Shown in pieces: positions 14,501 through 39,176 of a stretch of DNA of 64,000 bases; position 1 is the stretch's first letter, and every line of letters starts with the position of its first letter. The DNA lies in the NCBI GenBank assembly GCA_965178125.1, contig OZ237748.1:186001-250000 (forward strand), read 5' to 3'. The notes beneath the pieces are model-generated. The model was not told where the DNA came from, searched no databases, and was given only the letters and a program-made list of their open reading frames with translations. The position numbers and the translations under genes are program-made. Source of the stretch: Bilabrum cf. latius (Eukaryota).

Positions 14501-17500
14501 AGCCCAACGAGCAGCAGCAGTCCCAGCCCGAGCACCACGGCCAGCCCGAGCCCAACGAGCAGCAGCAGTCCCAGCCCGAGCACCACGGCCAGCCCGAGCC
14601 CAACGAGCAGCAGCAGTCCCAGCCCGAGCGCGACAGCCAGCACCAGTCCCAGCGGATCTGTCTCCCCATCGAGCAGTCCCAGCCCGAGCACCACGGCCAG
14701 CCCGAGCCCAACGAGCAGCAGCAGCCCCAGCCCGAGCACCACGGCCAGCCCGAGCCCAACGAGCAGCAGCAGCCCCAGCCCGAGCACCACGGCCAGCCCG
14801 AGCCCAACGAGCAGCAGCAGTCCCAGCCCGAGCACCACGGCCAGCCCGAGCCCAACGAGCAGCAGCAGTCCCAGCCCGAGCGCGACAGCCAGCACCAGTC
14901 CCAGCGGATCTGTCTCCCCATCGAGCAGCCCCAGCCCGAGCACCACGGCCAGCCCCAGCAGCAGCCCGAGCATGGGTTCATCTGCCAGCCCCAGCAGCAG
15001 CCCGAGCATGGGATCATCTGCCAGCCCCAGCAGCAGCCCGAGCATGGGATCATCTGCCAGCCCCAGCAGCAGCCCGAGCATGGGATCATCTGCCAGCCCG
15101 AGCAGCAGCCCGAGCATGGGATCATCGGCCAGCCCCAGCAGCAGCCCGAGCATGGGATCATCTGCCAGCCCCAGCAGCAGCCCGAGCATGGGATCATCTG
15201 CCAGCCCCAGCAGCAGCCCGAGCATGGGATCATCTGCCAGCCCGAGCAGCAGCCCGAGCATGGGATCATCGGCCAGCCCCAGCAGCAGCCCGAGCATGGG
15301 ATCATCTGCCAGCCCCAGCAGCAGCCCGAGCATGGGATCATCTGCCAGCCCCAGCAGCAGCCCGAGCATGGGATCATCGGCCAGCCCCAGCAGCAGCCCG
15401 AGCATGGGATCATCTGCCAGCCCCAGCAGCAGCCCGAGCATGGGATCATCTGCCAGCCCGAGCAGCAGCCCGAGCATGGGATCATCGGCCAGCCCCAGCA
15501 GCAGCCCGAGCATGGGATCATCTGCCAGCCCCAGCAGCAGCCCGAGCATGGGATCATCTGCCAGCCCCAGCAGCAGCCCGAGCATGGGATCATCTGCCAG
15601 CCCCAGCAGCAGCCCGAGCATGGGATCATCGGCCAGCCCCAGCAGCAGCCCGAGCATGGGATCATCTGCCAGCCCCAGCAGCAGCCCGAGCATGGGATCA
15701 TCTGCCAGCCCGAGCAGCAGCCCGAGCATGGGATCATCGGCCAGCCCCAGCAGCAGCCCGAGCATGGGATCATCTGCCAGCCCCAGCAGCAGCCCGAGCA
15801 TGGGATCATCTGCCAGCCCCAGCAGCAGCCCGAGCATGGGATCATCTGCCAGCCCCAGCAGCAGCCCGAGCATGGGATCATCTGCCAGCCCCAGCAGCAG
15901 CCCGAGCATGGGATCATCTGCCAGCCCGAGCAGCAGCCCGAGCATGGGATCATCTGCCAGCCCCAGCAGCAGCCCGAGCATGGGATCATCTGCCAGCCCC
16001 AGCAGCAGCCCGAGCATGGGATCATCTGCCAGCCCCAGCAGCAGCCCGAGCATGGGATCATCTGCCAGCCCCAGCAGCAGCCCGAGCATGGGATCATCTG
16101 CCAGCCCCAGCAGCAGCCCGAGCATGGGATCATCTGCCAGCCCCAGCAGCAGCCCGAGCATGCGATCATCTGCCAGCCCCAGCAGCAGCCCGAGCATGGG
16201 ATCATCTGCCAGCCCCAGCAGCAGCCCGAGCATGGGATCATCTGCCAGCCCCAGCAGCAGCCCGAGCATGGGATCATCTGCCAGCCCCAGCAGCAGCCCG
16301 AGCATGGGATCATCTGCCACTGCCTCTTTAAGCCCTAGTCCGAGCACAATGAGCACCCCAGCCGCAAGCGCGAGCCCGACACCTTCCTCAAGTTCACTCG
16401 TCACACCATCCCCACGGAACGCGACTTGCTTCGACGCTATACTCAACGGACAGGAAGGCGACATCGATTGCGGGGATCCAAGTGACAGCTCGTGTCCCGG
16501 GTGCACACAAGGCAGGGCCTGCACTTTCACCGCAAATTGCGCGGCTGGTCTCATTTGCGGGCAGCAGCAGCGAAGGTGCGTAGCTCCCGTGCAGCTAGCC
16601 GGCGCGTACGTAGCCGTGATTGGGCTCCGGATTGATGGTGTGGCGAGTGCGCAGTTCGTCGACGTCCTGCAGGCACCGCTGCTTGACGGCGTGATTTCAG
16701 CGACCGGCGCAGAGGCGGCTTCCGTGACTCGGATCGTGGAGCTTGGCTCCACCTCATCATCATCATCATCATCATCTTCGGCTTCCCGGTTCCTGGCGTC
16801 TGGTCTGGGTCAGGTTCTGCAAAGTCTTGCACCTCGTGCGCTGCAAGGCGCTGCACCCGGCGTGGAGGTTGACCTGCAGGCGAGGCTGCCGCCGGGTGCA
16901 GACGAGCAGAAGGCCAAGGAGGCTCTCTCTGCATACCTATCATCTAGCGAAACAGGAGCGGGCGAACCTGGGGCTGGAGGAGCGGGTGGAGGTGGAAGCG
17001 GTGAAGGCAAGGAGAACGGTAGCGGAAGCGACGGGGGAGGTGCCGGTGGGGGTGGTGCGGGCCAGCCGCCCGTGGAGGGTCCGAGCCTTCTTGCCGACCT
17101 GCGTGCGGCGGCCGAGTCCTCCGCCGCTATCGATTCCGGATCCATATAGGTTGCAACCGCGGAGGCCACCATCGAGACGGTGGTTCTGACGGCAGATGTG
17201 GTGATGGAGGAGGCCCCACCCTTGCCGAGCGGCAACCAACAAGGCGGGGATGGAGGGGGAGGTGGCGGTACTGGCACTGGTGCTGGCACTGGTGCTAGCA
17301 TTGGGGGTGATGATGACGATTCACTGTCTACTGGTGCGATCGCAATTCTGGCCGTGTTCGGTGCGGTCGTGCTGCTGGTGGTCGCCGTTGGATATTTTAT
17401 CGTGAGTGCCCGGCGGCGGGCGGTTCCCGGCAGAGCAGGCTGCTGCTCTTCATCTTCGAAGTACGCGGCCTCGCACGCACCCCATCCGTCCGGCTCGAAC

Positions 17501-17797
17501 GACGCGATGTCAAAGACGAGATCAACGGCAGAGATGCTGGAACGCCGGAGCACCCAGGAGGCGGCTCTCCCGAGGCGAAGCAACGCAAACGGAGATGATG
17601 GTGGGGTCAAGAGAACTGCACTGGACGACATCGGCGTTGATGTGAACGTGGACGACGATGATGAGGCGGGGCCTGGCAGCATGTACGCCGCTTTGGCATC
17701 CGGGCCGGGGGGGTCATCTGCCGCCTCCGCCTCTGCTTCTTGCCCCCACAAGGGGGGCGGGGACGACGGCGCCATCGATGACGGGGTGCACGTGTGA
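11510..17797 (+). CDS. FG-GAP (integrin-alpha-like) double beta-propeller surface protein with Ser/Pro/Thr stalk, Cys-rich + SEA-like module, TM helix and tail; 1 in-frame TAG
   Basis: Signal-peptide-like MTILTLAAIVCMSQSSSA; many GDxDGDG..D Ca-binding motifs in two duplicated halves. ORF 11402-17149 continues in frame across TAG 17147 into 17180-17797, which supplies the TM helix (AIAILAVFGAVVLLVVAVGYFIV). Ends in TGA. Confidence 0.88.
14320..16320 (+). repeat. Coding mucin-like stalk: 48-bp units (SPSPSTTASPSPTSSS) followed by ~38 36-bp units (SPSSSPSMGSSA)
   Basis: Directly visible in-frame tandem repeats. Confidence 0.95.
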
Positions 17798-18961
17798 CGA
17801 GTGTGACAAGGTGGTGGCGGAGTTGGTTGTGCATCGCACTGTACGGAATTGACTCGATTGGGACGATCTAGGGCGCGCTTGCTGCTTGCGCGCTTGTATG
17901 CGTCGTATATGTGTCGTCGCTGTGGGGGGCTGGGGGGTTGCCGGCATGGGGGGGTGGCATGGGGGGGTGGCATGGGGGGGGGCGGCATAGGTGCGTGTCC
18001 CCGAACGGCTCGAGTCTAGCACACGATCTTCGCGTGGCTGCCAATGGCGCCCGCGAAAGAGAGAGCGATCGGGCGCGCGTGATGCATCGAGCTCATGGTA
18101 CCAAGTGCCGACGGTGATTGTCTGGTGTCCCCTACGAATGTAATGGTACAATAGACACAATAGACTAGTCTACTGGTTTGTACCGGTTCCGGATCGGATC
18201 AGTGATTTGCGCGGCGCCATAAAATGATGCACCTCGATTCAGCACGCTCCTGCACGTTTGCTGGTGCGCTTCTCAACTCCGCACGAGGAGATTAAGTATG
18301 TTGATATGCTATTCAAAGATACGGCCTTTGGCAGGGAGCTGCAGCTTTGTGCGGCGCCGTATCTGTGTGATTAGTGTTACACGACAGCCCGACAGTACCC
18401 GGACAATCCTCTCTAGTCAACAAAACGACCTAAATGTACACCTGTATGATAATGACACCTAATTATGCGGTTTACAGCAGACAGAAGTCTGAATATGATT
18501 CATTTGGACAGGACAGGGTCCACGGTCGTCCCTCTGGCAGCCGCAGCAAACTTCCTTCGACTGGCCCTCTTGAGACACTGAATTTGATTACATCCTTGGC
18601 ATGCAGGGATCCAAATCGCGCATTTCGACGTGCGTGCGAAATGCCTGGCGGCCACATGGTTGCAACTCGTGGTGCAGCGGGTATGCCGGGGTGACTGTCA
18701 ACCACCGTACGAACATCGCAGCCCGATTGTAATGCTTGCTCGGACTTCAGTAACAAATGAATAGATCCAATAGTCAAAAAGTATAGGCTGAACGTTTGCG
18801 ATTGAACAGCTTACCCTCAGGTCAGACGCTACCGGCAACCGCCGTCCGCTTGTGGACACAACCTCGCACCTCCACCGCAAAAAAAACTCCTTCCCCTCGC
18901 GGGTCAGGGGGCCGCCTAAGCCTAGAGCAGTAAAAGCATAGACAGTCAAGACAACCTGTAC

Positions 18962-20492
18962 GCTCACCTTCAGCGCAGGTCACAGGCTCAGCGAGGTCGT
19001 CCCAGCGGACAGGGCGGGTAGAGCGCGAGGGCTCACCTTCAGCGCAGGTCACAGGCTCAGCGAGGTCGTCCCAGCGGACAGGGCGGGTAGAGCGCGAGGG
19101 CTCACCTTCAGCGCGGGTCACAGGCTCAGCGAGGTCGTCCCAGCGGACAGGGCGGGTAGAGCGCGAGGGCTCACCTTCAGCGCAGGTCACAGGCTCAGCG
19201 AGGTCGTCCCAGCGGACAGGGCGGATCGAGCGCAAGGGCTCACCTTCAGCGCGGGTCACAGGCTCAGCGAGGTCGTCCCAGCGGACAGGGCGGGTAGAGC
19301 GCGAGGGCTCACCTTCAGCGCAGGTCACAGGCTCAGCGAGGTCGTCCCAGCGGACAGGGCGGATCGAGCGCGAGGGCTCACCTTCAGCGCAGGTCACAGG
19401 CTCAGCGAGGTCGTCCCAGCGGACAGGGCGGATCGAGCGCGAGGGCTCACCTTCAGCGCAGGTCACAGGCTCAGCGAGGTCGTCCCAGCGGACAGGGCGG
19501 ATCGAGCGCGAGGGCTCACCTTCAGCGCAGGTCACAGGCTCAGCGAGGTCGTCCCAGCGGACAGGGCGGGTAGAGCGCGAGGGCTCACCTTCAGCGCAGG
19601 TCACAGGCTCAGCGAGGTCGTCCCAGCGGACAGGGCGGATAGAGCGCGAGGGCTCACCTTCAGCGCGGGTCACAGGCTCAGCGAGGTCGTCCCAGCGGAC
19701 AGGGCGGATCGAGCGCGAGGGCCCACCTTCAGCGCAGGTCACAGGCTCAGCGAGGTCGTCCCAGCGGACAGGGCGGATAGAGCGCGAGGGCTCACCTTCA
19801 GCGCGGGTCACAGGCTCAGCGAGGTCGTCCCAGTGGACAGGGCGGATAGAGCGCGAGGGCTCACCTTCAGCGCAGGTCACAGGCTCAGCGAGGTCGTCCC
19901 AGCGGACAGGGCGGATCGAGCGCGAGGGCTCACCTTCAGCGCAGGTCACAGGCTCAGCGAGGTCGTCCCAGCGGACAGGGCGGATCGAGCGCGAGGGCTC
20001 ACCTTCAGCGCAGGTCACAGGCTCAGCGAGGTCGTCCCAGCGGACAGGGCGGATAGAGCGCGAGGGCTCACCTTCAGCGCGGGTCACAGGCTCAGCGAGG
20101 TCGTCCCAGCGGACAGGGCGGATCGAGCGCGAGGGCTCACCTTCAGCGCAGGTCACAGGCTCAGCGAGGTCGTCCCAGAGGACAGGGCGGATCGAGCGCG
20201 GGGGCTCACCTTCAGCGCGGGTCACAGGCTCAGCGAGGTCGTCCCAGCGGACAGGGCGGATCGAGCGCGAGGGCTCACCTTCAGCGCAGGTCACAGGCTC
20301 AGCGAGGTCGTCCCAGCGGACAGGGCGGATCGAGCGCGAGGGCCCACCTTCAGCGCAGGTCACAGGCTCAGCGAGGTCGTCCCAGTGGACAGGGCGGATC
20401 GAGCGCGAGGGCTCACCATCAGCGCGGGTCACAGGCTCAGCGAGGTCGTCCCAGCGGACAGGGCGGATCGAGCGCGAGGGCCCACCTTCAGC
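18962..20492. repeat. Minisatellite, 69 bp unit, ~22 copies; coding status unclear
   Basis: GCTCACCTTCAGCGC(A/G)GGTCACAGGCTCAGCGAGGTCGTCCCAGCGG... at 18962, 19031, etc. Open on the - strand (AEGEPSRSIRPVRWDDLAEPVTC, 18822-20507, no ATG) and also in one + frame. Confidence 0.95.
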
Positions 20493-21877
20493 GTCCTCCT
20501 CTGCCACACGCCCTCCTGAACCCTCGTCCTCCTGCCTGTATTTTTATACCAGCCAGCAATACGCCCCCCCCCCCCCCCCCCCCCTTCCTCCAAAGGATAA
20601 GACGAGCAGGCGACTCGCTTCCTCTTGCAGATACCCGATTATCATCGACGGCTCATGTGCTCCTCAATCGCGACGTCAGACGATTCCGTCGCCGCGTTAT
20701 CCTACCGGGGCATTACGCGCCTAAGTTTTGCAGATAGCTGACCCTGAGGCGGCGCAACGTACGGGTTGGCGGACGTGGCGAATGCCAAGTTGGGGAGCTT
20801 AACATGAGTTTGAACAAGCTGGTCGCAGGATGAGGACGAAGCGGATCATGTCCATTACGGTGCCCACACCATCAATACATCGCTGGAGCATATACCGTAA
20901 GGCCTCCACAAACGATGCTTGTTCCCTGGTGCTGGAATTGCGGTTTACTTCGGCGAAGCAGCGAAGTCTGATGGTCCTTTCACCACCGGTTTGCACCTCT
21001 TCGCGTGAAAATCCGCGCACTCGCCGTTTGCTGAATGGTCGCAATTGAATTTATTGATATCTGTCCCCAGACGAGCGTCTCGGCTCCTTCATATCTGAAG
21101 GTGTCCTTCGACACAGAGCTTTTACTGTCGACTTTAGTTGAGGGCACCGGCTTTTGCTCATTTGAGAACCGATCCACAAAGACATCGAACTGCTCGTCGG
21201 CTCACATTTACAAATTGATTGCATTCGTTAATCAAGGGTGTCATTGCCTCTATAACCGAGAATTTTGTGAGGCGAGTGGCAGAGTTCGCGGTTGCGACCA
21301 GTCTTGCACAATGCGACGCGTTGTTCCTGAGCACTTTCCTTATCGTGTAGCCACACGAAATGGTTGCACCTGCGTCAAACGTAAAAATAATAAACCCTTT
21401 TAAAGGCGACCAAAGCGAAACGCACGTCACTAAGGTGGAATTTTGTGCTATCAAGCCAGACGTGGGTCCCAAAATTGAAGTAGACGCACCCCTCACACAC
21501 AAGCTACTATTCGGAGGACTTTTCGCTCCAATTGAGGCCTTTCAAAAATTGAAATCCGCGGAGCATCAGGTAGAAGCCAAGTCTGACGCGGGAGAGGCAC
21601 CTGAAGGTGAAGCTTCGTTCCCCCGATGTATTGCAGAGCAGACAGCGGTTCTGAGGGCCCAAATCACAAAGAACAAAGACTACACCCTGCCAAACAAAAA
21701 GAGGTAAGTCATTGCATTCGTTCGTTGGTTGCCTCTTATACGCAGACGGCCGCCCAACACATTGTCCGTCCGTCCCGAGAGAGGCTCTCCGCCGAACCTC
21801 TGGAGCAAAAAGTGGTACACCTCGGAAGCTACCTATTGCATATGCTGATATACATTCCATTTCTTAATATTCACAGG

Positions 21878-24800
21878 ATGACTTGGCGATCGTAGCCTCG
21901 ACTGGGCCCATCGCCAGCTCGCAGTGGTTCCAATACCGTGCCGCTGGCAATCGCACTTCTTCTGAGCCTAACGGTGGCGCTCGCGGCAGCAGCAGAAGCC
22001 ACCTCAGTCTGGCTCATGCCCATGCCCAGCCAGCCCGAGCCCTGGATCGATGAGGTTCACGTTGAGGTCAAGTGGCCGCCCGTGGATAGTCTCATCGAGC
22101 ACAAGGCGTCACTGGTAGGCACAAACCTCACGTCTCGATCCGGCGAGCTGTGGATCGCCATCGGAGCAGGGAATGAGGCAGACGCGCCCCCGAACAGGTC
22201 CCTGCCGATCCCCGCCCCCACGAACTCGACCATTGCGAATCTCACCGGCGGGCAGGGTGCTGGTCTGCTGATCCGCATGGAGGTCCAGGGGTGGCTGAGC
22301 TCTTCCGTGGAGGGCATGACTGCATTCGGGGGCGGTGGCTCGTTCACGGTGTGGCGAAGCAAGGAATCGGTGATGGTGCCATTGAGGGACGAATTGCAGC
22401 TGGCCATGTTCGGGAACTAGTCCATTGCCGATGTCACGCAGGGCATCCTCGGCCCAACGGCAGATGGGTGGGAGAGAGGTCCTGCATGCGGGCGCGTGTC
22501 CATTCTTCCAACGTGGGACAATACCACGATTCGAATTGCCATCCCGCACAGCCTGCTGCTCGGGGCTCAGTCGACCACGACTTCGATCAACACCAGCCTT
22601 GCAGTGTGGAGTTCAGCTCTGGTGAAGAGTGATTCGGACGATCCAAGAGCATCGAGCACACTAAGTGCTACAGGCGTGCAGATGGTGTTGCCCCAGGGGT
22701 GGGAGTCTCCACTGCCGAGCGACTAGTGTGCGATGTCTGCTGCAGTGCAGGTCACTGGGGGAAACACCCATTTTTGCACACTTGTCAGCATGGGTGATGT
22801 TCTGTGCTGGGGTATGAACCAATACGGCCAGCTGGGATGCGGGCACGACAATGGACCTCACTGCATGTACAATGGTATGTACGTTGGCGTAGGCAGCCCT
22901 TCGTTCCTGCTTGGCCCTGTGAATATGACGGACCAGTCGACCTCGAAGACACTTCAAGCAGTGTAGATTTCGGCTGGCGATTACCACACGTGCGCGTTGC
23001 TGGGGGGCGGAAACGTCATGTGCTGGGGCTCGAACAGTCGTGGTCAGCTGGGATGCGGGAATGACAATGGACCTCACTGCATGTACGGGAAAGAAGGTGA
23101 TGGCGTGGGCAGCCCTTCGTTCCTGTCGAGTCCTGTGAATATGACGGACCAGTCGACCTCGAAGACACGTTAGGCAGTGTAGATTTCGGCTAGTGCAGAT
23201 CACACGTGCGCATTGCTGGAGGATGGGGACGTCATGTGCTGGGGTTCAAATCTGTACGGTCAGCTGGGATGCGGGAACGATACTGGTCCTCACTGCAGGT
23301 ATGGTAGCTACTACAATGGCGTGGGCAGCCCTTCGTTGCTGCTTGGCCCCGTGAATATGACGGACCAGTCGATCTCGAAGCGGCATCGGGCGGTGCAGAT
23401 TTCGGCTGGTGCAGATCACACGTGCGCATTGCTGGAGGATGGGGACGTCATGTGCTGGGGTTCAAACCTGTACGGCCAGCTTGGATGCGGGAACGATACT
23501 GGTCCTCACTGCATGTACGCGAATTAGGACGATGGCGTGGGCAGCCCTTCGTTGCTGCTTGGCCCCGTGACTATGACGGACCAGTCGATCTCGAAGCGGC
23601 GACGGGCAGTGCAAATCACAGCTGGCAGCTTGCACACATGCGCGTTGCTGGACGGCGGTGACGTCATGTGCTGGGGTTAGAACCTGTACGGCCAGCTTGG
23701 ATGCGGGAACGATACTGGTCCTCACTGCATGTACGCGAATTAGGACGATGGCGTGGGTAGCCCTTCGTTCCTGTTTGGCCCCGTGAATATGACGGACCAG
23801 TCGACCTCGAAGCGGCGTCGGGTGGTGCAAATCACAGCCGGTAGCTTCTACACATGCGCGCTAACGGAAGGCGGTGACGCCAGGTGCTGGGGCTCGAATT
23901 CGAACGGTGAGCTTGGATGCGGGGACGATACTGGTCCTCACTGCATGTACGCGAATTAGAACGATGGCGTGGGCAGCCCCGCGTTCCTGCAGACCCACAT
24001 TGGCAACGCTAGCTTGCTAGCAATAGCTGCGTCCTCCTTGTCAGCATCATGTGCAATTAGTACTCTTGGAAGCCTGACTTGCTGGGGAAATATCTAGTTT
24101 CGGCCTGCAGCACTACGTCTTGTAGACGTGCCCAAACCCGTATTAGTGGTAGGTTCACATCAGTGGCTTGGCTCAGGGTGTGAAAGTGGCTGGTAGCAAA
24201 CATGCACGTTGCTGGAAGGCGGGGACGTTATGTGCTGGGGCTTAAATTCGTATGGTTAGCTTGGATGCGGGAATGACGAGAGCCCTGACTGCATGTACGG
24301 GGATGAGTACGACGGCTTGGGCAGCCCCTCGCTCCTGCTGAGCCCCATAAATATGACGGACCAATCGACCTCGCAGCGGCGTCAGACGGCGCAGATAACG
24401 GCTGGAAAAGATCACGTGTGCGCGTTGTTGGAGGGCGGGGACGTCATGTGCTGGGGTTCGAACTCAAACAGTCAGCTGGGATGCGGGCACGACAATGGAC
24501 CTCACTGCATGTAGGGGAACGATAACGATGGCTTGGGCAGCCCCTCGCTCCTGCTTGGCCCCGTGAACATGACGGACCAGTCCACTTCGAAGCGGCGTCG
24601 GGCGGTGCAAATAGCTGCTGGCGTGGTCCACACATGCGCATTACTGGAGGATGGGGACGTCATGTGCTGGGGCTCAAATCTGTACGGTCAGCTGGGATGC
24701 GGGAACGATACTGGTCCTCACTGCAGGTATGGTAGCTACTACAATGGCGTGGGCAGCCCTTCGTTGCTGCTTGGCCCCGTGAATATGATGGACCAGTCGA

Positions 24801-27800
24801 TCTCGAAGCGGCGTCGGGCAGTGCAGATTTCGGCTGGAAAAGATCACACATGCGCGCTGTTGAAGGGTGGAGACGTCATGTGCTGGGGTTCGAACAGTCG
24901 TGGTCAGCTGGGATGCGGGAACGATACTGGTCCTCAATGCAGGTATGGTCGCTACTTCGATGGCGTGAGCAGCCCTTCGTTCCTGTCGGGTCCTGTGAAT
25001 ATGACGGACCAGTCGACCTCGAAGACACTTCATGCAGTGTAGATTTCGGCTGGTGCAGATCACACATGCGCGTTGCTGGACGGCGGTGACGTCATGTGCT
25101 GGGGCTCGAATTCGAACGGTCAGCTTGGATGCGGGAACGATACTGGTTCTCACTGCATGTACGCGAATTAGGACGATGGCGTGTGCAGCCCCTCGTTCCT
25201 TCCGGGCCCCGTGAATATTACGGACCATTCCACCTCGAAGCGGCGTCGGGCGGTGCAAATAGCTGCTGGCGTGGTCCACACATGCGCGTTGTTGGAGGGC
25301 GGGGACGTCATGTGCTGGGGTTCAAACCTGTACGGCCAGCTTGGATGCGGGGATAACGATGGCCCAAACTGCAGATATCAATGCGGTGATGTGACTAGTC
25401 CTGCGATCCTGTCGGGTCCTGTGAATATGACGGACCAATCGACCTTGAAGCAGCGTCAGGCAGTGCAGGTTACAGCTGGTTGTTTCCACACGTGCGTATT
25501 GCTACAAAGCGGGGACGTCATTTGCTGGGGCCTAAATAAATATGGCCAGCTTGGATGCGGTGAGTTTTCATACCATTGTTTCCCAGAAATTGGATCCCCA
25601 GCTAGTATAAATGCTGTCAGGATGAGGCCACTTGAACAAACAGCATCACTTAGGTGCCGTGGAGGGACCGGGTGCTTGTCTCCTTTGGGTTTATCCAGTG
25701 GACTCGATCAAATCGAGATTTTGAGCTCTAATGGGATTCCTGGAATCCGTGATCTCCCCAGTGCAAACGCATGGGGTGAAGCAGGCAGTATCGAGGGCGT
25801 GGATGTCGCCGGAGCCTAGCTACCAGGTGTCAAGCAGGCCATCCAGACCGAAGGAGGTTCGTGCCCAGTCCCATACGCCCCCTGGCCATCTTGGGAAGTT
25901 AGGAAGAGAACCAGCTGCTTCGTGGAGGCTTAGAGCCAGGTGTCCACAGTAGGAGATTGGCAGCTCCGCGTAATGGGTTCATGGGCCCCGTTTGTGTCGC
26001 TGATGATCGTACCCGTGGTTCGAGTTGGATCTTCTACACTGTCCGATTGCGTCATCGTGGATGCTGTCACGCTGCAATGCCAAGGCGTGGCTGGAATCGG
26101 GGTCAATCAGAGCGTTTGGATCGAGTCGATGGACTGGCACTTGCCTGGTATCATGAACGCCTCCCGATTTGCTGGAAACATTTCCTATGCCCCGCCTGTG
26201 GTTCGCGCCGTGCGTGGAAGCCAATTCCGGCCAGGACAAGATGTTACCATCCTGGGTTTCGGATTTGGTGGAAGCAGGTTCAAAGCCAACGTCTCGGTCA
26301 CGATTGGGAACTCTGGCGATCCCTGCAAAGTGATCGATGTCGCGGATGATGGCACTTTGAGCTGTAGCTTGCCGTTTATCTACCAGCGAGGCCTTGGAGT
26401 GGTGGTCAGCGTGGGGAACCAGCAGTCCAAGGGCGATGTCACCATTAATATGCCACCGCCAGCCATAGTGGGTGCAAATGTGTCCGTTCCTGACCTCCCC
26501 CAACCGAGTGGAAGATGCGAAGCTGTGCAGGGACAGAAAATTCAGGCCATCATCGATGGATCCGGGTTCTCTCCTGTCCTCCTGGCTAATGTGACGATTG
26601 GCGGTCAGATTGCCTCAGAGTGCAACGTCACTTCCAACGACGGCACCAGTATCGAATGCGCCGTCACGATGCCGTGCGTATGGCGAGAGCCAAAGGTGAC
26701 AGTCGGGTACTTTGAGAGCCAATCCCGCGTGACCATCGGATCGGCTGCGTTTGACGGCGTGCAGCTCCCCGTGCCCAAGAAGCTGCCACTCATCCGTCCG
26801 ATCTCTGCGACGGCCTATCGACCCGCCGATGATACCCATGGGGTGGAGGTGTTCGTGCTTTCGCTTTCCCAGGAGTTCGAAACGAAGCTGCTTGGACTGC
26901 TGGGGCCTGACTACGGCGCAGCTGGTTCGGCGCCTGACAAATTCGAGGTCGTGGTGGAGGAGAGCGACCGGAGCGGCACAGTCGTTGCCACTCCAACGTT
27001 TGACAGGTAGACCTCCCGTGTGACCCTTGGATCCTGGAACTCATCCCTGGCCGATTTAGGTCTTGATCACGGCTTGCATCGGCTTGGCATTCGCGATGCT
27101 GGCTTGCGACAGCAGGTCGATCTCGTGCTGCACGATGCAAGCATAGGGGTGCAGCTCCAGATCGACCGATTCCGCGTAGATCTGGGTCAGAGTGTCCCTA
27201 CCTCTTTAGGTGTGACGATCAATGCCATGGGAGACTCAATGCGTGGACCTGCCAACACCAGTTTCACCATCCCTCACCCAGTTCGTTAGCTCTGCCAAGA
27301 GGGCGGCATGTTCGAGGAGTCCACTGGCACCTGCGTGTCGTGCCCGGAAGGTGCACTGTGCTGCGGACTATCGGCATCTGCAGTGCCTCCGCTTGAAAAA
27401 TGGTGGAAGCTGCCAGAGAGCTGGACGAGCAGCAGCAACAGCACCAACGTGGCATTCGCAAAGTGCCTCGAAGAGACAGAGGAGCTGTGTGGAGGATACG
27501 AGGAGGGTGCTTGCCACTCGCTGCCAGCGGAGCCTGTGCCTCTGCTGGGATTTCCAGCGCGATACCTTGATGACGCTCTCAAGTCAGAGTGGGAGAAACG
27601 GTGGAACGCCTCCCATCCTCTTTAGGTTAGAGTCCGCGATCCCCTCTAGCATGAATGCGAAGAGAACAGTGCCGGCGTCCTATGCTCATCATGCATAGAG
27701 GGCATGCGACCGTCGTCGGAAAGCGGCTGCAGGAAATGCGACGACCAGCTAGTGCTCCGAGAGGCTCTCATTTTGGCTGGTTTTGCACTGGTCAATGCCC

Positions 27801-29863
27801 TCGCAGTGTGGCTGGTACTGGTCATGAACGATCGGTAGAGTCAAGCCGTGGCCACGCGAGTCCTCAGGGGCGAACATCATGAGGCACATCACAGGCCGAC
27901 CAAGTCATTCCAGCACGTTGAGGAACTCGAGGTGCTGAACATCCTGATTTCACATGCGCAGTTCATCGCCATCATAGGCGCGATCGGGCTGCCTCCAGGC
28001 GTGGAAAAAGCTTTGAAGAAAGCTTTCGGTGTTGCTGCCTAGGTGTACAACCTTGGTCAGCAGTACGCCTTTCCTCACTGCATCATCGACTCGATGGGTG
28101 GGCACGAGTCAGATTCCAACAGCAACGGAACCGAGTCCCACAGTGTAGGAAGCGAGGCCCAAGATGGACAGCACCTCGAAGAGTCGGCTTTGAACTCGGA
28201 GCCGTTCACTCTGCTGGTAGCGAACGTTGCGGTCATACTGGCGCTGCATGGACTGGCGTGCATCTACTGGTGGGCGAAAGACACCTGTCGGTGGTGCCAA
28301 TCGTGTGACGAGTGGTGCGACAACGAGCGGCTGGCTTGGGGCTTGAGAGTTCTCTCCGCGGCCGCGTCGACCGTGCGAGAAGGTGAGCACGTCGTACACG
28401 CCGAGTCCCATGACCATGATCATCATCCGGCCCATGTGCCGACCCATGTTCAGCCGTTCGACGGTATCCAGCTGCCCCAGGAGCCGGCAGAACTCCCCGA
28501 GTTCCACCCCACCTTGTCCGGACGCATGGTCATGACTTTCAACGTCGTCATGGTGCTGCTGCACGCCTTCACGACCGAGCTGGCAATGGGCCTGTTGATA
28601 CAGAGGCACATCGGCGGCGCTGATTGCGAAGATGACATATGCAATCGCCTTGCAGAAGATCTGGACGTTGCGTGGAGTGGACAGAACAAGCAAGCTCTAC
28701 TTGGCTTGGGCGTGTCGGTTCTCGTGATTGCGTCCTTCGGCGTTCCACTGGCCTTCCTCGGTATGATGCTCTTGGATGACTCGAGCACGCCCGAAGGGGC
28801 GTATAGGCTGACCAGCCTGCTACAAGCGTTTCGACCTGGCCGCAAGTGGTGGTTGGTTGTGGAGATGATGGCCAAAGCCGTGCTCATCGTCCTCGCTGGC
28901 CTGGCCGAGTACTATGGCGAGAACCTCCAGCTGGTGGTCTACTTGTTCGTCATTGGCGGGCTTGTGTTCGCTCAGCTGGCTCTTCTTCCTCATTGGGAGT
29001 ACGCAGCTGATGTGCTTAGCATGGCATCGAAAGTGGTGATATTCACCTCCCTTGCACTTATCATAGCGGCGTACACGGTGGAGTTCGAAGTCGAGATCGG
29101 GCATGAAGCCAACCATGGCTCGGGTGGCTTCAAAGCGGCTCTTCAGGTGATCGTCGTCATCATTAATGCGGTCTACAGCGCTGTAATGCTCTGGCTCATG
29201 CTGCATCGTCCTGTCGGCACGTTCCTCGCCCGCTGCAGATCGCTGTGCTTCAGAAGGCAGCCGATCGCTTCCCGCCATGCCCAAGTCGGAGACCATGCAG
29301 CTAGTAGAGCTCTCAGAATCACTCGGGCCGAGTACTACGGTACTGTCGCGCGGACAAGCAGCGCAGCGAGCATTGACGTTCGCAGCCACGACGCTCTGCT
29401 TGGTCACGAGGACAACAATCTGACAAATATCGGCTTCGTGGCAGATACGGATGGCAATGCTCGGGACCGGGAGCGGAGACGATACTCGACTAGCCCGGGC
29501 CAGGAGGCCTCGGAGCTGCCGATGGGACCAGTCGGGACACTGGAGACCAGGGGCTTTCATGGCCGCCGCAATGGCTTGGCCGACCCGTCTCGAGACGCGC
29601 AAGTGGCAAAAGACAGGCGTGTGGAGAAGGGTGTATTGGCGGCCACCGTAGTTCTAGCAGATGGTGGCCAGCAGCAAGCAGCAGGCGAATCCAAATGGGA
29701 GCCACTGCTGACTGGTGCATGCGCGCAGCCACAAGGTACTACCGTTGCAACAGGTGCATTCAGTGGCCAGATTGAAAGCACCTTCGATAGCATGCGAGGC
29801 GAAGGAGTAGGAGCTTTCCAAGCTGGAGGCGCCGCCGCATCAGCCGATCCGCCTAGAAAATAA
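21878..29863 (+). CDS. ~2660-aa receptor-like membrane protein: signal peptide, ~14 RCC1-like repeats, IPT/TIG-like domains, Cys-rich linker, multi-pass TM domain; 24 in-frame TAG
   Basis: Thirteen listed ORF fragments between 21938 and 28043 share one frame. Hand translation of the gaps found only TAG, never TAA/TGA, until TAA 29861. RCC1 motif [23 protein letters not shown] in 216-nt units; [12 protein letters not shown] and [13 protein letters not shown] motifs precede several hydrophobic helices. Confidence 0.9.
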
Positions 29864-30320
29864 GCGCTGCAGCAACGGATGATCCGATGCGGCACTCTGC
29901 AAAAGGTATTCGTCGTGAGGCGACGAGAGGGTTACCTATGCAGGAAGAGGTATGGCTCGAACTCAGTGCAGTAGCACGCTGGTTGGCAAACGGGCAGTCT
30001 ACACAATATCAACTTGACACCAGTCTATAGCCTATGAATGGTCCTGCGTTGATGACTAGTTGAAATTTGCTGCTTTGAATGAAAGAAGCTTGACTCAGAA
30101 TTTAGCCAACTTCTTCAAAGCTACACCATACTAATGATAATAAATTGAAGTCTGCACTGCCAACTTGAAACGGCTCAGCTACAGCACCAAGATCGGTTGC
30201 CTTTCTTAGACTCTATCCATGAGGATCCATCCGGATCAAAACGGGCAAATAGTTTAAAGTTGTAAGTTTCGTAAACAATAATCAAGAGTCCCAGCCTCAC
30301 TGTCCTCACCTGCCCCTCCA

Positions 30321-33300
30321 TCAGCTCAATCCACCACCTCCATGAACCGCCCTCCGGAACATCACTAGCCTCTCTCTCCTCGACTGGCAGTTTTGAAGGT
30401 CCAAGCACTGCCACTGCCTGATATACTAGGGCAACACATTATGTTCTGCACAGATGCACGCAGACTTTCTCAGCATGTCGTACGTGCCTGAAACCTGCAG
30501 CGCATTGTGCAGCATCCGCTTCATCTGAGCCATATTTGCTGCAGGTTCGTCCTATTGCCCAGGTTGCCTAGCGTTTCCTTGCAGTGTTGCAACGATGCCA
30601 TCTATAGGGTCATCGTGCACCGAGCGACACGACACGAGTACCCGTACGAAGTGCCTAAGGTGTGAAGCGATCATGCAGAGGATCGACTCGCACTCAAAAA
30701 ACGTGATAGGATCGCCCCATTCGCCATCGTAGTCCGGATGCAAGGCCCTGATCGTTGTACCCTGCACGACCCGGCGGGTATAAATCGCAACGCACACTGC
30801 CAGCGCGCTCATGTGTGTGTAGCTTTCGGAATAGAGCTGGAACTCTTCCGCCCTAGGATTGAGAAAGTTGGGCAGCCCTATAAGCGAGTGAATCATTCTG
30901 GTGGCGCGTTCGGGCTGAAGGTTCTTCACTTCACCCCTTAACCAGGCCGTCATCGTGTGGTATTGCATGGCCCACAAAGGGACACTGGTTGCTACCTGCC
31001 AGAAGTAGCCCACGCTGCAGCATGCTGGAAATCTTCCCTGCCGCCATTCCGCATTGAGTTCGGGCCTACAAATCCATGCAGACACACTCATGTAACTCTG
31101 AGGCTGCGATACTGCAGGGCTAGCCTATCCGACTGCCTAGAGCTCCATGCCAGATGCAGCTTCAGGTGCCCCTGCCCCTGCCCCTGCCCCTGCACCTGCA
31201 CCTGCCCCTGCACCTGCCCCTGCCCCTGCACCTGCCCCTGGTCCTGCACCTGCCCCTGGTCCTGCCCCGCTTGCAGTCTTCTTCTTTTGCCTTCGACCCC
31301 TTCGCCTGCTACTCTTGGCTCCAAATGCCGACACAACTGAGGAAGCCACCGCCACGCTTGGATTCGGAGCGCAAGGGATTGCGTTCATGTTTCCCTTGCG
31401 CACGTTCTCCTTGACTAGTTTGAATTTCCGGGTCACTGCTTCTAGCCACGGCAGCAGGATGGGTTTTAGGTACTAATTATCCTGGTGGATATGCCCTCCA
31501 TCGCAGAAACAAAGCATCTCGATGTGCCTTGACATCATTTGTGCAATCTAGATCAGGTTCCTTGGAATGCGGTAGCTGCCCGACAAAATACGGTCTTCGG
31601 CATCACATATTGCACTGGATCCAATGATTACACCAATCTAGCCTAGGTATGTTACTGCTCCTATTCCATCTGCTAGCACATCAATGGCCTGTCTCACAAA
31701 ACCGGAAGCCTTTCCTGGTTTCGATGGGGAGACGTGCATCCGTGCAGAAACGAGCAGTGGGTGCGACACGAGTGCATGCGCCAAGTGAGGTAGGGTTGCA
31801 AGGCTGCTCGGCTTGCGGCTGCAGCCCTTGTACAGCCTGAAATCAAGACGACTGATGTTCCGTATCGAACGATTCCCACTGATGCCATTGGCCACCTGTC
31901 GGACCACGCCGGGCAGCTCTTTGTCTGACACGCTCTGCAGGCCAATTTCAAGAGAGCGAATCGACAGAGACCGCTGAAGACTTCTTCCAATCTCTTGCAT
32001 ATGTTTCTGAGTCTACGGGCACATCCCAAGTTTCTCCAAGTGCTTTGACACTGCAGCACCACTTGCAATGTGCTTGTTCGCCTCGTTAATCTGATCCTGC
32101 TACTCTTTCGACAAAGCCAAGAATGGGACCTCCGGATCCATGCACATGTACGCATCCTCTCTGCACAACGCACCAGGAGTCACGTCTACGCCTGACATGG
32201 CAGCACTGGGACGTGCCTGCGATGGATCCATCACGTTGCACTGCAAGACCTGGAGAACAGAACCGAGCATCAACTCAAAACCAATCGCAGTGCCAATGAC
32301 GGGATGGCACGGTGAGTGGATAACAAGCTCCCTCAGTGAATACCTCCCGCGAGTATGACGCAGTAATCGGCCGATCGCCTCGGCGCAATCACGCCCTACG
32401 TAGCAGCCGCTGCGACTTGTTGCCCCCTCAGACCAGTGGATAGTCAATCGACGGATGCACTGGCTACATGACAGGCCTACCAGCATCTTCTTGAGCCCAT
32501 CTGAAGCGACTGATAGTGTGGCGCCGCTAGCCCTACACTTCGAAAGAGCCAGAGCAAGAGGGTCAATGGTCCCCGTGCGTAAGTCCACGATGTAACTGAA
32601 TGCTTGCTCTCCTTCCAAAACGTCTGTGGGTTCGTTCTGTGGTGTTGGCCCCGGGTTACTGGCGGCCGAAATAGGGACCTAGGTACCCAGCCCTCCATCT
32701 TGAGGGCCCTGATGACCTGCTGGTGCTGCTGCTGACTCTGCCGCTGCGAAAGTCGCATGTCCTGCTGCAGCGTCTGTCGCATTCCTTGGTCTAGCGAACG
32801 ATTCTACTCCGGAAGCCCCTTCTTCAGAGTCGCCTGCCCCCGACGCAGCATGCTGTGGATGGGCTGATGGATGTGAGGGTCCCGCTGGAAGTCTAGGCGA
32901 TTCGCCTGCGACAGTGCCTGCATCAGCCCAACTGACTGGATGCATCGAATCAGCGGGTATGCCGGCCTCCTGTATATATGCATCCAGTAGCTCTAGGTCA
33001 ATGCTACCGCCCTCCCGAACAGATGTGACGAGTGCGGCGACTAGTGTTCGGCTCCGTGAGCCTGCCGTTGAGCCATGCAGTCGAAGCTTGTCAAGCCGAT
33101 GCAACGCACTACCAGTACCAACGCTGAGCTCCGGCACTGGTCCTATGTACTTGAGCTCTTTCAGTCCACACTGGCAGGCAGGCGAGTCCATTATGGTACG
33201 GAGGAAATGGGCCGCTGCCACGTCGTCTTCGGCACACACCTCTACTTTGGTCACGCGAGGCAGCTGTATCACGCGTTGAAACGACTTGACAAATGATTCT

Positions 33301-33764
33301 ATTGCACCCGCATGCCCCAGCGGAAACCTTGGTAGGGCGATGCCAACGCTTGATAACTGCGAGCAGCACGATGCCACGCGGCTCATGACCAGGCCAGCCT
33401 CAGACACTTGCCGAAGCTCAAATCTGAATTGTATGGTTTTGAGGCAGTGGCATAGTTTAATCACGGGGAGCAGCTGAAGCATGTGTCCTCCCTGGAATTC
33501 GGCAGCAAATGTGATTCCTCGAATGATTGCCGGTTCTTGCGACAGTAAGTCCCCACAAATGCAAGCGCAAGACTTGCCAAAGAATCCCATTAGATCAATC
33601 GATAATCCAGTATCCCCAGTTTCGTCTTCATAGTATTTGAAGACAGCTTGTGCCTCAGCAGAAAACCGAACCGTGCAAGGGATCCTCTGCAACCCCTGCT
33701 CTTTGGCCATTTCAAACGATCTTTCGATCCCATGCTGTTGAATCTCGATAGAAGGAAGATCCAT
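30321..33764 (-). CDS. ~1150-aa protein with degenerate LRR-like (LxxLxL) repeats, function unknown (paralog 1); 10 in-frame TAG
   Basis: ORFs ending at 32679, 32100, 31638, 31137 and 30552 share one frame and are joined only by TAG; TGA at 30321-30323. Colinear from the first Met with the paralog at 34788-38979. Motifs LKELKY, LDKLRL, IRRLTI, LRELVI, IRSLEI. Confidence 0.8.
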
Positions 33765-34453
33765 TTCGTGTATCGAGATTGTGCTGGGTAATAGGAAAGG
33801 AAAGCGCCGGTGCGCCCGACTCGAGTCCTGCCGGTTGTAACCTCTCAAGAGGTCCTCTTGAAGAGGTTACAACCGGTAATTTGTAGCGGCTAAGACCAAT
33901 TTAGCAATCCCCAGATCTCTCGGCTCCTGGGGTTCAATTGCTACTCCTTGTCTGGTTTAATTGATCTAGGTAGTAGTTCTTACATATTAAGTCAGTGTAC
34001 ATCGATCCTTAATATTTGCCAGTACTGCCCTCGCACGCACACTTGCAACTTGTCCATCGATAATCTGATTGTTCGGGAGTAAGCCAAAAGCAAGCGGTAC
34101 ATGCTTTACTACACCACTATTTACCATGCTGCACTGTGGTGGCTCCTCAACATGAGATTCTCAGAATATGCAGCCAAAGTCACGTCGCAAAAACAGTACA
34201 GACAGCGATTTCACCGCCGCGGCTGGGAATATGCACAACATATTACCAACAATATAATACTTATATGCTTGGCTCGCGTTTGATTAACGATGGGGCGTCA
34301 CGGCATCTCTTCATCGCGCCCATCTCGCGCTAATGCGAGCATGCGCATCAGCTGCGCGGACGGCCGCCTTGGGTCGGCCACGAGGATCAGGGCAAGCGTC
34401 AGGAAATGACTCCAAGCTTCCACTACTCTTGATACCATACCCTCTGGCTCCAC

Positions 34454-34650
34454 GTCCTCCCCGGCCAGGTCATCGTCCTCCCCGGCCAGGTCATCGTCCT
34501 CCCCGGCCAGGTCATCGTCCTCCCCGGGCAGGTCATTGTCCTCCCCGGGCAGGTCATCGTCCTCCCCGGCCAGGTCATCGTCCTCCCCGGCCAGGTCATC
34601 GTCCTCCCCGGGCAGGTCATTGTCCTCCCCGGCCAGGTCATCGTCCTCCC
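34454..34650 (-). repeat. 21-bp tandem repeat (GEDDDLA), ~9 copies
   Basis: GGGGAGGACGATGACCTGGCC units on the - strand; the same repeat occurs at 55580-55722 on +. Confidence 0.95.
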
Positions 34651-34870
34651 CACCACCCCCATGCACCGCCCTCCGGAACATCACCAGCCTCTCTCTCCTC
34701 ACCTGCCCCTCCGTCAGCTTGATCCACCACCCCCATGCACCGCCCTCCGGAACATCACCAGCCTCTCTCTCCTCACCTGCCCCTCCGTCAGCTTGATCCA
34801 CCACCCCCATGCACCGTCCTCCGGAACATCACCAGCCTCTCTCTCCTCACCTGCCCCTCCATCAGCTCAA
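34651..34870. repeat. 74-bp tandem repeat, ~3 copies, duplicating the 3' end of paralog 2
   Basis: ATGCACCG(C/T)CCTCCGGAACATCACCAGCC... at 34661, 34735 and 34809. Confidence 0.9.
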
Positions 34871-37800
34871 TACATTTCCAGTGCTGCACAAACATAGGCA
34901 GGCAATCCAGCGCCTGGCACTACCTGGCCCTCCACCTAAAATCGTCAAACACGCCAAGCTCCCTCATGTCATCGTAAAGGAGCGATTGTACGACTTCCGT
35001 CTCCTCTGCCTCTGCTCTGCGCACTGTATTTTCGTCTTCGCCCTGCCCCCAGCGTTTCTGTGCCATAGGCCCACGGACCGGATCCAGCTTTACAGTACGC
35101 GATGAAAACTTTAGGAAGTGCCGAACGCATGCTAGAATAGAGCACACGAACTCCTGCGCCTCCTTCACCGTCGTTCCCTCCCCGTACGATGCAACTCTGT
35201 GCGAGGGTAGCAAGCACCGCTGCAGGACGGCCTCAATGGCGCGGCGGACGTACATCGCCACGCAAAGAATGAATTTCGGGTCGATCATTGGCATTCCCCC
35301 TTCTAGCAGCTGGCACATGTTCGGCACTGCGACGATCGTCTGCATCATCCGAGTGGCCCTCTTGGCAGTGGCGTGCTTCTCGTCGCTGCGGGTCCAGGCC
35401 GCCATCCTCCATTGCTGCTCGGCCCACACAGGGTGCTGATCGACCATGCGCGAGAACAAAATGCGGCTCAATCTCTCGGGGTACTTGCCCTGGCGCAGCA
35501 AACAAGGTCAGCGAAAGCGGGATACGATTGCGCCAACTCAGACGATTCGCCTGCGCCTGCCGCTGCGTCGCATGCAGCAGACCGGGGGGGTCCCTCCTCA
35601 GCCGCAGCACGCACCACGTTACATGAGGCAGACAGAGGGGGTCCCTCCTCAGCCGCAGCTCGCACCACACCCTCCAGGGCCATGGCTGCAGCTGACCAAC
35701 CAAGGTCTACATCGTTGGCTGCGTCAGGATCTTCCGAAACAGCATTGCTTGCAGTACCATGATCAGCTTCTTCTCCATCCTCTGCATCCGGATCTGCACC
35801 GGTATCAGCTGAACTGCCCACAGATTTCTTTGCCTGCCGCTTGCGCCCCCGCCTGCGCCTTTTTCTGCCCCTGGATCGAGAGCTGCTGGGACCAGCATGG
35901 AAGGTTCCTCCGGGCGAGCCGGACCCTTTCGCGGCTGCTTTGTTCGCTGCATGCATCTTTCTGGCCTTCTTGACTGCCTTGCCGACCATGTGTAGCCATG
36001 GGGCGATGACCGGCCGCAGCCCAGCCTGGTCCATGCCGCCCAACTCGAAGATACACAGCGTGTCGCTGCTGTCTGAAACCTGCCTGGCCATCCGAACCAC
36101 CTCGTCGGGAAGGTGATCGCTGCCCGCCAAGATCCGCTTCTCGCAGAGCTGAAGAGCAGTGGAAGCAACGGAGCCCCCCCCCGATCCCATATAGGTCCCG
36201 GGCCCGATGCCGGCGGACGTCAGCTCCACTGCCTCCCTCACATGGGGGTTTATCTTGCCCGGCAGCCCTGCAGGGACGGCGATTGGCGCCTGCACGATGA
36301 GCGGGTGACTGACGATTGCATTCACTAAATGTGGCAGTCTCGCCAGGCTCTCAGGGCCCCTGTCACGCCCCATGCATTTCGTTAGGGACATGCGACCTAG
36401 CATGCAAAGGGACCTGTTCTTCAATATACCATAGGCTAGCTTCATCATTGCCTTTGGAAGCTCCCGGTCGACTATGCTCTGCATGCCAACATCGAGCTGG
36501 TATATGGACACCGTGTTGTAGAGGCACACAGAGATGTCATCATCGCCTTTGGAAGCTCCCGGTCGACTATGCTCTGCATGCCAACATCGAGGTGGTATAT
36601 GGACACCGTGTTGTAGAGGCACACAGAGATGTCATCATCGCCTTTGGAAGCTCCCGGTCGACTATGCTCTGCATGCCAACATCGAGCTGGTATATGGACA
36701 CCGTGTTGTAGAGGCACACAGAGATGTCATCATCGCCTTTGGAAGCTCCCGGTCGACTATGCTCTGCATGCCAACATCGAGCTGGTATATGGACACCGTG
36801 TTGTAGAGGCACACAGAGATGTCATCATCGCCTTTGGAAGCTCCCGGTCGACTATGCTCTGCATGCCAACATCGAGCTGGTATATGGACACCGTGTTGTA
36901 GAGGCACACAGAGATGTCATCATCGCCTTTGGAAGCTCCCGGTCGACTATGCTCTGCATGCCAACATCGAGCTGGTATATGGACACCGTGTTGTAGAGGC
37001 ACACAGATATGTAGTCCATCTGGTTCCAGTCCTATGGACACAAGCCCAGCTGCTCCACGTGCTGCAACCTCAGAACGCCCCTGGCAATAGCAAGGTAGGC
37101 CTTCGAAATGTCACGCTGCTTGTCGTCCGGTAAGCTCCCGAACGGGACGGCCGGCTCCAGCTCGGAGAACAGCTGGCATTCGCACCAGTCCGGGGCCTGC
37201 GACTCGGCCATTACGTTGCAGGCCAGTGACGTCAGCGGCGCGCCGTCCTCCATTGCACTCCCGATCGCTGCGCCTACGTTCGGGTGGCATGGCGGATGGA
37301 TCGAGATCTCCCGAATGGACTTGCTTGGTGACCGCAGCAGCCGATCGATCGCATCGGCGCATGCCTCGCCCACGAACGGTCGGCTTTCCCTCCCTCTCTT
37401 TGTAGATTCCGTTTGGGTACGAAATGATGAGCTTTCGAATGAACGAGCTGCACGACGCGCCCAGCAGCAACGAGTCGAACCCGTCCGAAGCCGGCGACAG
37501 CTGCAAGGCCCCTGCTCTGCATCTAGCGAGCGCCAGTGCAAGGGGATCTACAGTCCCTGTGACTGTATCAATGAGAATGTTGATGCCATTTCCTGCAGGT
37601 TTCTCGGTGTAGGGAACTTCTTCGGCTTGGGTTCCAGCATCTATTTGCCCCTGAATTGACTCAGCTAGCCCTTGGTCCACTGCCAGCGACTCGGTCGGAT
37701 CGCGAGCTTGCAGTTGGCTTCCATCCAGTTGCGGTGAAACATCATCGACGAGATCTGCTGCACTGGAGCCTGCTCCCTGCTGCCCCACTGCACCTTGCGG

Positions 37801-38979: not shown

Positions 38980-39176
38980 ATAGGTTGTTCAATGATTGGA
39001 CCAGTTCTACGAGCGAATAATGGCCTAGATCTATTCACTTTGCAGATGTGACGAATGCGGTAGTCTACGGTGCTGGGTGCAATGCAAAAAATGCACATTG
39101 AGTTCAATCGGTTGAGAATGTTTTTATCCGGAAAACATTTTTGAAACCAAACGAGCTTCGATACCACGCGCGCGAT

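Follow-up and report, generated by a model that had tools for sequence, protein, structure and literature searches.

In-frame TAG codons probably specify glutamine in the long genes of a GC-rich, intron-poor eukaryote

What does TAG mean in a gene that carries 24 of them in frame? The question is raised by a locus in a stretch of 64,000 nucleotides (nt) of DNA filed under Bilabrum cf. latius (GCA_965178125.1, contig OZ237748.1, positions 186,001 to 250,000 of the forward strand; hereafter the window, from whose first letter all positions are counted). The region 21611-29863 (+ strand) contains a gene for a membrane protein with RCC1 repeats. Under standard stops no piece of this region exceeds a few hundred codons, whereas treating TAG as a sense codon gives one frame of 2750 codons with 24 in-frame TAG, no internal TAA or TGA and a TAA at its end. 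The analysis leads, with good albeit incomplete confidence, to the reading that the window comes from the nuclear genome of a eukaryote that is GC-rich and poor in introns and in which UAG has been reassigned from stop to glutamine (Gln, Q), with UAA and UGA still terminating. TAG occurs freely inside long, domain-bearing frames that look expressed, and interchanges with CAG and CAA between repeats and between homologues. That it is a sense codon in the window is close to certain, and glutamine appears well supported as its meaning from comparison of sequences.

TAG inside long, domain-bearing frames

The window is about 60% G+C and consists of a few very long open frames with minisatellites between them. 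The other five frames of 21611-29863 contain 14-24 TAG, 6-14 TAA and 25-64 TGA each, and against the 31-78 TAA and TGA so expected, their complete absence from the RCC1 frame has a Poisson P <= 3e-14. TAG, meanwhile, is equally frequent in frame and out of frame in this region. The seven frames identified with confidence in the window (11,764 codons) hold 47 TAG, 271 CAG and 80 CAA, and TAG is present in six of them:

21878-29863, + strand: coding sequence of the RCC1 membrane protein; 24 in-frame TAG, TAA end
30321-33866, - strand: frame of no known family; 1181 codons, 10 TAG, TGA end
39177-50243, - strand: Rrp5 homologue with S1 domains and HAT repeats; 3688 codons, 6 TAG, TGA end
56914-59946, + strand: FG-GAP repeat membrane protein; 1010 codons, 4 TAG, TAA end
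11396-17797, + strand: second FG-GAP repeat protein, with a long Ser/Pro/Thr-rich tract; 2133 codons, 1 TAG, TGA end
7486-9138, + strand: 550-codon frame; 2 TAG, TGA end

TAG makes up about 0.9% of codons in two frames of lower third-position G+C and 0.05-0.16% in two of higher. The frames were cut at TAA and TGA, which makes their lack of internal TAA and TGA partly a matter of construction; the evidence for a sense TAG rests on the length of the frames and the continuity of domains along them.

That continuity is clearest in the RCC1 frame, whose product has a signal-peptide-like N-terminus, 13 RCC1 blades, an IPT/TIG region, a Cys-rich region and a multi-pass membrane region, and would from this layout be a surface-type protein, secreted or in the membrane. 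The RCC1, RCC1_2 and RLD profiles of Pfam all score above their curated cut-offs in the blades: WD40_RLD at E=7.4e-141 (470.1 bits, cut-off 150), RCC1_2 at E=4.9e-134 (433.7 bits over 13 stretches, cut-off 22) and RCC1 at E=8.2e-83 (273.3 bits, cut-off 21.7), with TIG also found. Solved chains that match are UVR8 (the best, E=1e-27), RCC1/SRM1, HERC1/2 and RPGR (E from 1e-27 to 1.6e-11). The blades are common to all of these RCC1-like beta-propeller proteins, and the 13 here are enough for two propellers. They differ in being 72 residues long with a Cys-rich insert, and the protein that carries them, secreted or in the membrane, also has TIG and multi-pass membrane parts. For the membrane part at 28478-29365, an Atlas feature search finds a likeness to clusters of TRP-type ion channels (score 0.94; PF06011 on 18-24% of members). 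A Pfam scan of the membrane part did not list the TRP family or PF06011 at E up to 1, and the likeness is for that reason a lead only.

The Rrp5 homologue is matched by S1_RRP5 (E=8.9e-07) and S1 in Pfam, and its C-terminal part by proteins that carry the domain set of Rrp5, including one named rRNA biogenesis protein rrp5; an Atlas feature search gives HAT-repeat clusters that are 92-100% Eukaryota by recorded taxa. Together with a canonical intron, Rrp5 indicates that the DNA is eukaryotic and nuclear. The intron directly precedes the signal-peptide-like start of the RCC1 protein:

21704-21876, + strand: spliceosomal intron of 173 nt, GTAAGT...CAG; skipped in one contig of run X5 (GT..AG ends, after a 2-nt shift), kept in the DNA contigs of run X1

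Where the gene begins is uncertain, either at ATG 21878, directly after the intron, or at ATG 21360 in exon 1. The exon upstream of the intron (21219-21703) stays open in the reading frame that continues into exon 2. Its single ATG, at 21360, falls three bases after the spliced X5 contig begins. Because this ATG stands in the open joined exon, the protein may start about 115 residues before ATG 21878.

Contigs from runs of three studies were compared with 21500-41400, and no letter differs anywhere in 21611-29863. The X5 pieces listed cover at least 15 of the 24 TAGs, all unchanged, and none of those listed lies over 30099-30269; among the pieces listed, X5-X7 have little or no depth over most of 34116-38763. 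That X5-X7 are RNA runs is a guess (X5 is marked 'probably DNA', and no RNA run is on record for the stretch). Their depth pattern looks like that of transcripts, a hint of expression and not proof of it, and the spliced X5 contig gives a similar hint, again short of proof, that the TAGs survive into mature transcripts. The letter-identical contigs over 21500-41400 are filed under three different coded organism labels in the three studies, and the same strain was therefore present in differently labelled material.

Could TAG nevertheless still be a stop, with the gene a decaying pseudogene, its product restored by RNA editing or programmed readthrough, or the codons themselves sequencing errors? 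Young duplicate repeats could gather C-to-T damage that turns CAG into TAG. However, all 24 interruptions are TAG, with no CAA turned into TAA and no TGA despite 35 CAA and 53 TGG codons, and TAGs lie outside the repeats too; repeat-induced damage was rejected on these two grounds. The same pattern recurs in five other frames and in a contig from a relative, two TAG positions match the ends of homologous fragments about 25% diverged, and the contigs of the three studies, one of them spliced, are identical by letter. Nor does TAG have a common context: the base that follows is A (.32), C (.19), G (.34) or T (.15), a mixture that leaves no context-specific readthrough signal, and 24 successive readthroughs would be expected to give almost no full-length product. 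The chance that TAG is still a stop is accordingly put at next to nothing.

Glutamine and its competitors

An earlier note, made from the letters of this DNA, had claimed that TAG swaps with CAG and CAA at invariant RCC1 positions in some 14 near-identical repeats of 216 nt. Its coordinates are all correct, and the repeats are indeed present as two arrays of period 216, in which CWG anchors mark 13 regular units and one degenerate unit, 14 in all:

22803-23990, + strand: first tandem RCC1 array of 216-nt (72-codon) units; 5.5 copies, 84% matches (Tandem Repeats Finder)
24200-25351, + strand: second tandem RCC1 array of 216-nt units; 5.3 copies, 78% matches (Tandem Repeats Finder)

The RCC1 repeat stretch as a whole (22688-25570) contains 14 TAGs, 11 of them in the regular units, over which codon columns were counted. 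Three of the six columns that carry TAG are those of the earlier note's examples:

22964-22966, 23180-23182 and 25040-25042, + strand: TAG in the AVQI column, which holds TAG three times, CAG five times and CAA four times
24257-24259, + strand: TAG in the GQLG motif column; CAG in 11 other units, GAG in one
23171-23173, + strand: TAG in a mainly Arg column; CGG six times, CAG/CAA three times, CAT once, GCT once (R6, Q3, H1, A1)

TAG, CAG and CAA therefore mix within one column, AVQI, where GCA GTG TAG ATT was reported and is found at 22958-22969, with its two recurrences. The GQLG motif written GGT TAG CTT GGA is likewise confirmed at 24254-24265. The third example, CGT TAG GCA, has its TAG where reported and Q in three other units, but its column is mainly Arg and not Gln. 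Invariance as claimed holds for four of the 11 regular-repeat TAGs, or five if 23171 is counted; the others stand in Tyr, Ser and variable columns. Among all 72 repeat columns three have a Gln majority, and two of these are among the six that carry TAG (hypergeometric P=0.017), with no enrichment of any other residue in TAG columns at P<0.16.

An internal profile was made from the residues of the other units in each TAG column with BLOSUM62 pseudocounts, and log-probabilities were summed for each candidate. With each column taken once Gln is best, followed by Glu (-5.3 bits), Ser (-7.6), Arg (-9.0), Leu (-9.1), Tyr (-9.3) and Lys (-11.9); with every TAG counted, Glu trails Gln by 2.2 bits and Tyr by 10.2. 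For a second comparison 22688-25570 was translated with TAG as each of the 20 amino acids and scored with Pfam models. Gln is top in both repeat models that the earlier note had proposed, i.e. RCC1_2 (Q 456.3, K 455.4, D 454.2, S 452.1, E 451.5, L 444.2, Y 443.7) and RCC1 (Q 287.6, K 287.5, D 283.6, R 283.5, E 282.1, Y 276.5, L 270.0), albeit with Lys within 1 bit. Alone, the repeats amount to thin or modest evidence for Gln (six columns, and the 5.3 bits over Glu), and much of the weight falls on the comparison with homologues outside the repeats and on the other genes of the window.

Codons 1380-2579 of the RCC1 frame, searched exhaustively, gave 25 matches, of which two are close homologues, P0007 (79% identical over 184 aligned residues) and P0008 (73% over 112). 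The TAGs that these alignments reach or approach are:

27008-27010, + strand: TAG codon 1800; Q in P0007 (TFVRQTSRV)
27623-27625, + strand: TAG codon 2005; Q in P0008 (HPLQLRV)
27287-27289, + strand: TAG codon 1893; P0007 stops one residue before it, and the distant homologue P0010 has Q, in the motif VRQLC
27647-27649, + strand: TAG codon 2013; P0008 stops two residues before it

P0008 furthermore starts at a Met seven residues past TAG-1893. Ends so close to TAG-1893 and TAG-2013 would be expected of a gene caller that uses the standard code if the homologue has stops there too, so that some TAG positions would be common to a homologue about 25% diverged, with others being Q in it. To weigh the two Q, the same alignments and two alignments of Rrp5 were counted: a Q in the window lies opposite Q in 28 of 38 cases and any other residue in 10 of 1165, with Glu opposite Q in 3 of 89 and Lys and Tyr in none. 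Q at both sites is therefore about 500 times likelier if TAG is Gln than if it is Glu, and thousands of times likelier than under the average other residue.

Further instances come from the distant homologue P0023, which has Q at the AVQI-column TAG in its top-scoring alignment; where it aligns to other repeats with lower scores, it has Q at the GQLG column and F (Phe) at a column that is otherwise Tyr. In Rrp5, PG-TAG-LV corresponds to PGQLV (with CAG) in two other S1 domains, at a position that is variable overall. The proposal that TAG acts as a Gln codon has thus gained support from the internal profile, from two Pfam repeat models and from Q in two close homologous fragments. Just two kinds of homologue carry names among the ten looked up, distant fungal Rrp5 and a Dictyostelium TIG protein; for the non-repeat part of the RCC1 protein, no full-length relative was found among proteins of 1512-4813 residues, and one fragment among shorter proteins.

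Besides the way in which the frames were cut, several results weigh against glutamine or against reassignment as such. The remaining three TAG columns of the regular repeats do not point to Gln:

24512-24514, + strand: TAG in a Tyr column; the other units are Tyr in 11 of 11
23678-23680, + strand: TAG in a Ser column; the other units are Ser in 9 of 12
23525-23527, also 23741, 23957 and 25169, + strand: TAG in a variable column (Y3, E2, D1, M1)

These six TAGs, all of them beyond the examples of the earlier note, place 6 of the 11 regular-repeat TAGs outside Gln columns (one in the Tyr column, one in the Ser column and four in the variable column, where Tyr is commonest), and the columns are not independent samples because the units arose by recent duplication. 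The gaps between Gln and Lys in the two Pfam repeat models, just 0.9 and 0.1 bits, do not separate the two residues. With WD40_RLD, Arg (648.3) scores above Gln (629.1), followed by Ile (605.0), with most others near 455; these scores were not used, because the totals jump with the number of stretches found. The FG-GAP scan is flat, with W 130.2, R 128.2 and Y 128.0 slightly above Q 126.6, and the sister repeats have TAT (Tyr) and TGG (Trp) opposite the two FG-GAP TAGs; both TAGs trace to a single event, in a duplicated block of three repeats. The close homologues cover just two TAG sites and may be paralogues from the same genome instead of orthologues, and outside the repeats the distant homologues (22-32% identical) have Q opposite TAG in one of 14 cases, that of P0010 at TAG-1893. 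Finally, a tRNA scan of the window found no tRNA gene, and an Rfam scan of it found nothing; eRF1 does not lie in the window either.

Some of these results favour another amino acid. For Tyr there are the TAG in the all-Tyr column, the four where Tyr is commonest and the FG-GAP TAGs beside TAT repeats; for Ser, the one TAG in a Ser column, together with the precedent of UAG as Ser and UAA as stop that a passage of PMC11687900 reports for Scotinosphaera. Lys comes less than 1 bit behind Gln in the two Pfam repeat models, and Glu is second in the internal profile. However, that profile sets Ser, Leu, Tyr and Lys 7.6, 9.1, 9.3 and 11.9 bits below Gln, the Pfam scans put Tyr and Leu 11-18 bits under it, and Q occupies both close-homologue sites, where a residue other than Gln in the window would so rarely be faced by Q. 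Several Rrp5 TAGs, moreover, lie in acidic or basic low-complexity tracts, where an aromatic residue seems unlikely. A meaning of Glu, Tyr, Ser, Lys or Leu, each with a precedent or some support in the window, is on balance improbable. The TAGs in the Tyr and Ser columns can be read, as TAG is one base from TAC and from TCG, as ordinary replacements in single blades, which an array of 13 could probably tolerate.

The stops that remain and a possible mechanism

If UAG is Gln, does UAA share that meaning, as it does in ciliates, ulvophytes and diplomonads? In a GC-rich genome TAA might simply be rare; three of the seven frames end in TAA (the other four in TGA), and homologues do not confirm the C-termini of these three. 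Reading through the TAA would add just 58 codons to the RCC1 frame, and passages of PMC5304391 and PMC11687900 state that UAA and UAG usually change together. Yet the seven frames contain 80 CAA codons, and if TAA stood to CAA as TAG stands to CAG, about 14 internal TAA would be expected where none is seen (P=9e-7). There is no TAA in Rrp5 from its first S1 domain to its HAT repeats, nor in the RCC1 protein from the signal peptide to the membrane region. On this evidence TAA is not reassigned, and UAA and UGA would still terminate; a code in which both TAA and TAG mean Gln is very improbable. With TAA and TGA ending the frames, the code looks like the one that assigns UAG alone to Gln ("code 15").

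A terminal TAG would be invisible in frames that are read through TAG, and TAG might in principle be ambiguous, Gln within genes and a context-dependent stop for some of them. Codes of that kind exist, according to partial literature sources, in some karyorelict ciliates and Condylostoma, and nothing in the window favours one here. All seven frames reach TAA or TGA, the end of Rrp5 coincides with the ends of its homologue P0002 and of the orthologue on a relative's contig (L001, TGA), and from its last TAG the RCC1 gene has another 606 codons to its end, this TAG lying in sequence that has homologues. An ambiguous TAG is likewise given very little chance.

Judging by other lineages in which UAG has become Gln, UAG would here be read by a tRNA-Gln with anticodon CUA, one base from the CUG isoacceptor and unable to pair with UAA, and eRF1 would have lost efficient recognition of UAG. 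Most TAG codons would then have arisen from CAG by C-to-T transition and drifted as a third, minor Gln codon, while a few would be normal substitutions of one amino acid for another, starting from the neighbouring codons TAC and TCG. Such a minor codon for Gln fits the mixing of TAG, CAG and CAA in one column, the positions that are partly common to a homologue and partly Q in it, and the lack of a common context.

Relatives, neighbouring features and known codes

The trait is not confined to a single assembly. L001, a metagenome contig of 5.7 kb from JGI, encodes an Rrp5 C-terminus 80% identical to that of the window and ending in TGA, and on the strand opposite to Rrp5 (1610-5695, - strand) a frame of 1361 codons contains 8 TAG, ends in TGA and has neither TAA nor TGA inside it. 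This frame has several membrane-like segments, matches no Pfam family and has no counterpart in the window. L001 was the sole contig from the JGI scan with the Rrp5 C-terminus alignment, and beyond Rrp5 it has no synteny with the window. Fragments in ENA and Logan are 73-96% identical to window proteins and, with L001, indicate that the TAG trait belongs to a small group of related organisms. A scan of JGI metagenomes with the RCC1 protein gave no relative, and neither did the prokaryote genome contigs and viral contigs scanned.

Elsewhere in the window there are three long minisatellite arrays (3770-6892, 18792-20833 and 51167-55942), open in several frames on both strands, with units of about 23-30 codons and an AT skew of 0.54-0.73 in 4001-6000 and 52001-56000; no Pfam family fits them convincingly. 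The FG-GAP proteins at 11396-17797 and 56914-59946 have very long Ser/Pro/Thr-rich tandem tracts, a Cys-rich module in common and a C-terminal membrane anchor. A similar C-terminal module is present in 7486-9138 and 3-1628, which suggests that all four may form a local family of surface proteins.

At 34400-39150 (- strand) lies a paralogue of the gene at 30321-33866, about 36% identical, spread over at least three frames and with tandem 95-nt units; it may be a pseudogene or silent copy, given the low or absent depth of the possibly-RNA runs over most of it. The two have one TAG at a common position (CP-TAG-TQ and CP-TAG-DW). As a test of codon meaning the pair was set aside as uninformative, with mixed residues opposite TAG at this level of identity.

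Standard-code gene callers cut the genes of this organism at each TAG, and as the database has just fragments of these proteins, such genes are invisible or misannotated in public collections. Provided that the lineage is not already described, the window adds a further case of a code change that is rare but already known. A tentative and rather doubtful extension is that it represents a lineage met only as fragments in several metagenome and run collections, with an independent change of UAG alone to Gln in a GC-rich, intron-poor genome, the first outside ciliates and Iotanema and old enough for TAG positions to be common to relatives about 25% diverged in protein. A literature search, with most subscription journals outside its scope, found no GC-rich non-ciliate eukaryote with UAG as Gln. 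Nuclei in which UAG and UAA differ in meaning are few and are used to ask how the release factor and a new tRNA split paired codons; a further GC-rich example with genomic DNA would let the tRNA(CUA) gene and eRF1 be inspected directly.

Reassignment of UAG alone to Gln with UAA kept as a stop is described in passages of PMC5304391 and PMC9161772 for the fornicate Iotanema spirale, whose genome had, according to the former, not yet been sequenced for this purpose, and in one of PMC11687900 for the ciliate Protocruzia tuzeti and two phyllopharyngean ciliate lineages. The name 'genetic code 15' is taken, in a passage of PMC9523058, from crAss-like phages. Excerpts of PMC5304391, PMC9161772 and PMC11687900 predict or discuss both a tRNA-Gln(CUA), with tRNA-Gln(CUG) as its source, and an altered eRF1. 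In-frame UAG at Gln positions and UAA as a stop are common to these lineages and the window. Here, in contrast, they occur at about 60% G+C in very long, intron-poor genes among many minisatellites, and UGA is as common a stop as UAA (four frames and three).

According to part of PMC11687900, UAA and UAG both encode Gln in ciliates, ulvophycean green algae, Hexamita, Streblomastix and Amoeboaphelidium, presumably through mutated tRNA-Gln. Capture of a stop for Gln is the common element, whereas in the window TAA is never a sense codon, against some 14 instances expected. UAG alone has also become Ser in Scotinosphaera (per a passage of PMC11687900) and, by a partial account, Leu in the rhizarian exLh; both resemble the window in that only UAG has changed and UAA remains a stop. 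They differ in the residue, for here the internal profile disfavours Ser and Leu relative to Gln by 7.6 and 9.1 bits and both close-homologue sites are Q.

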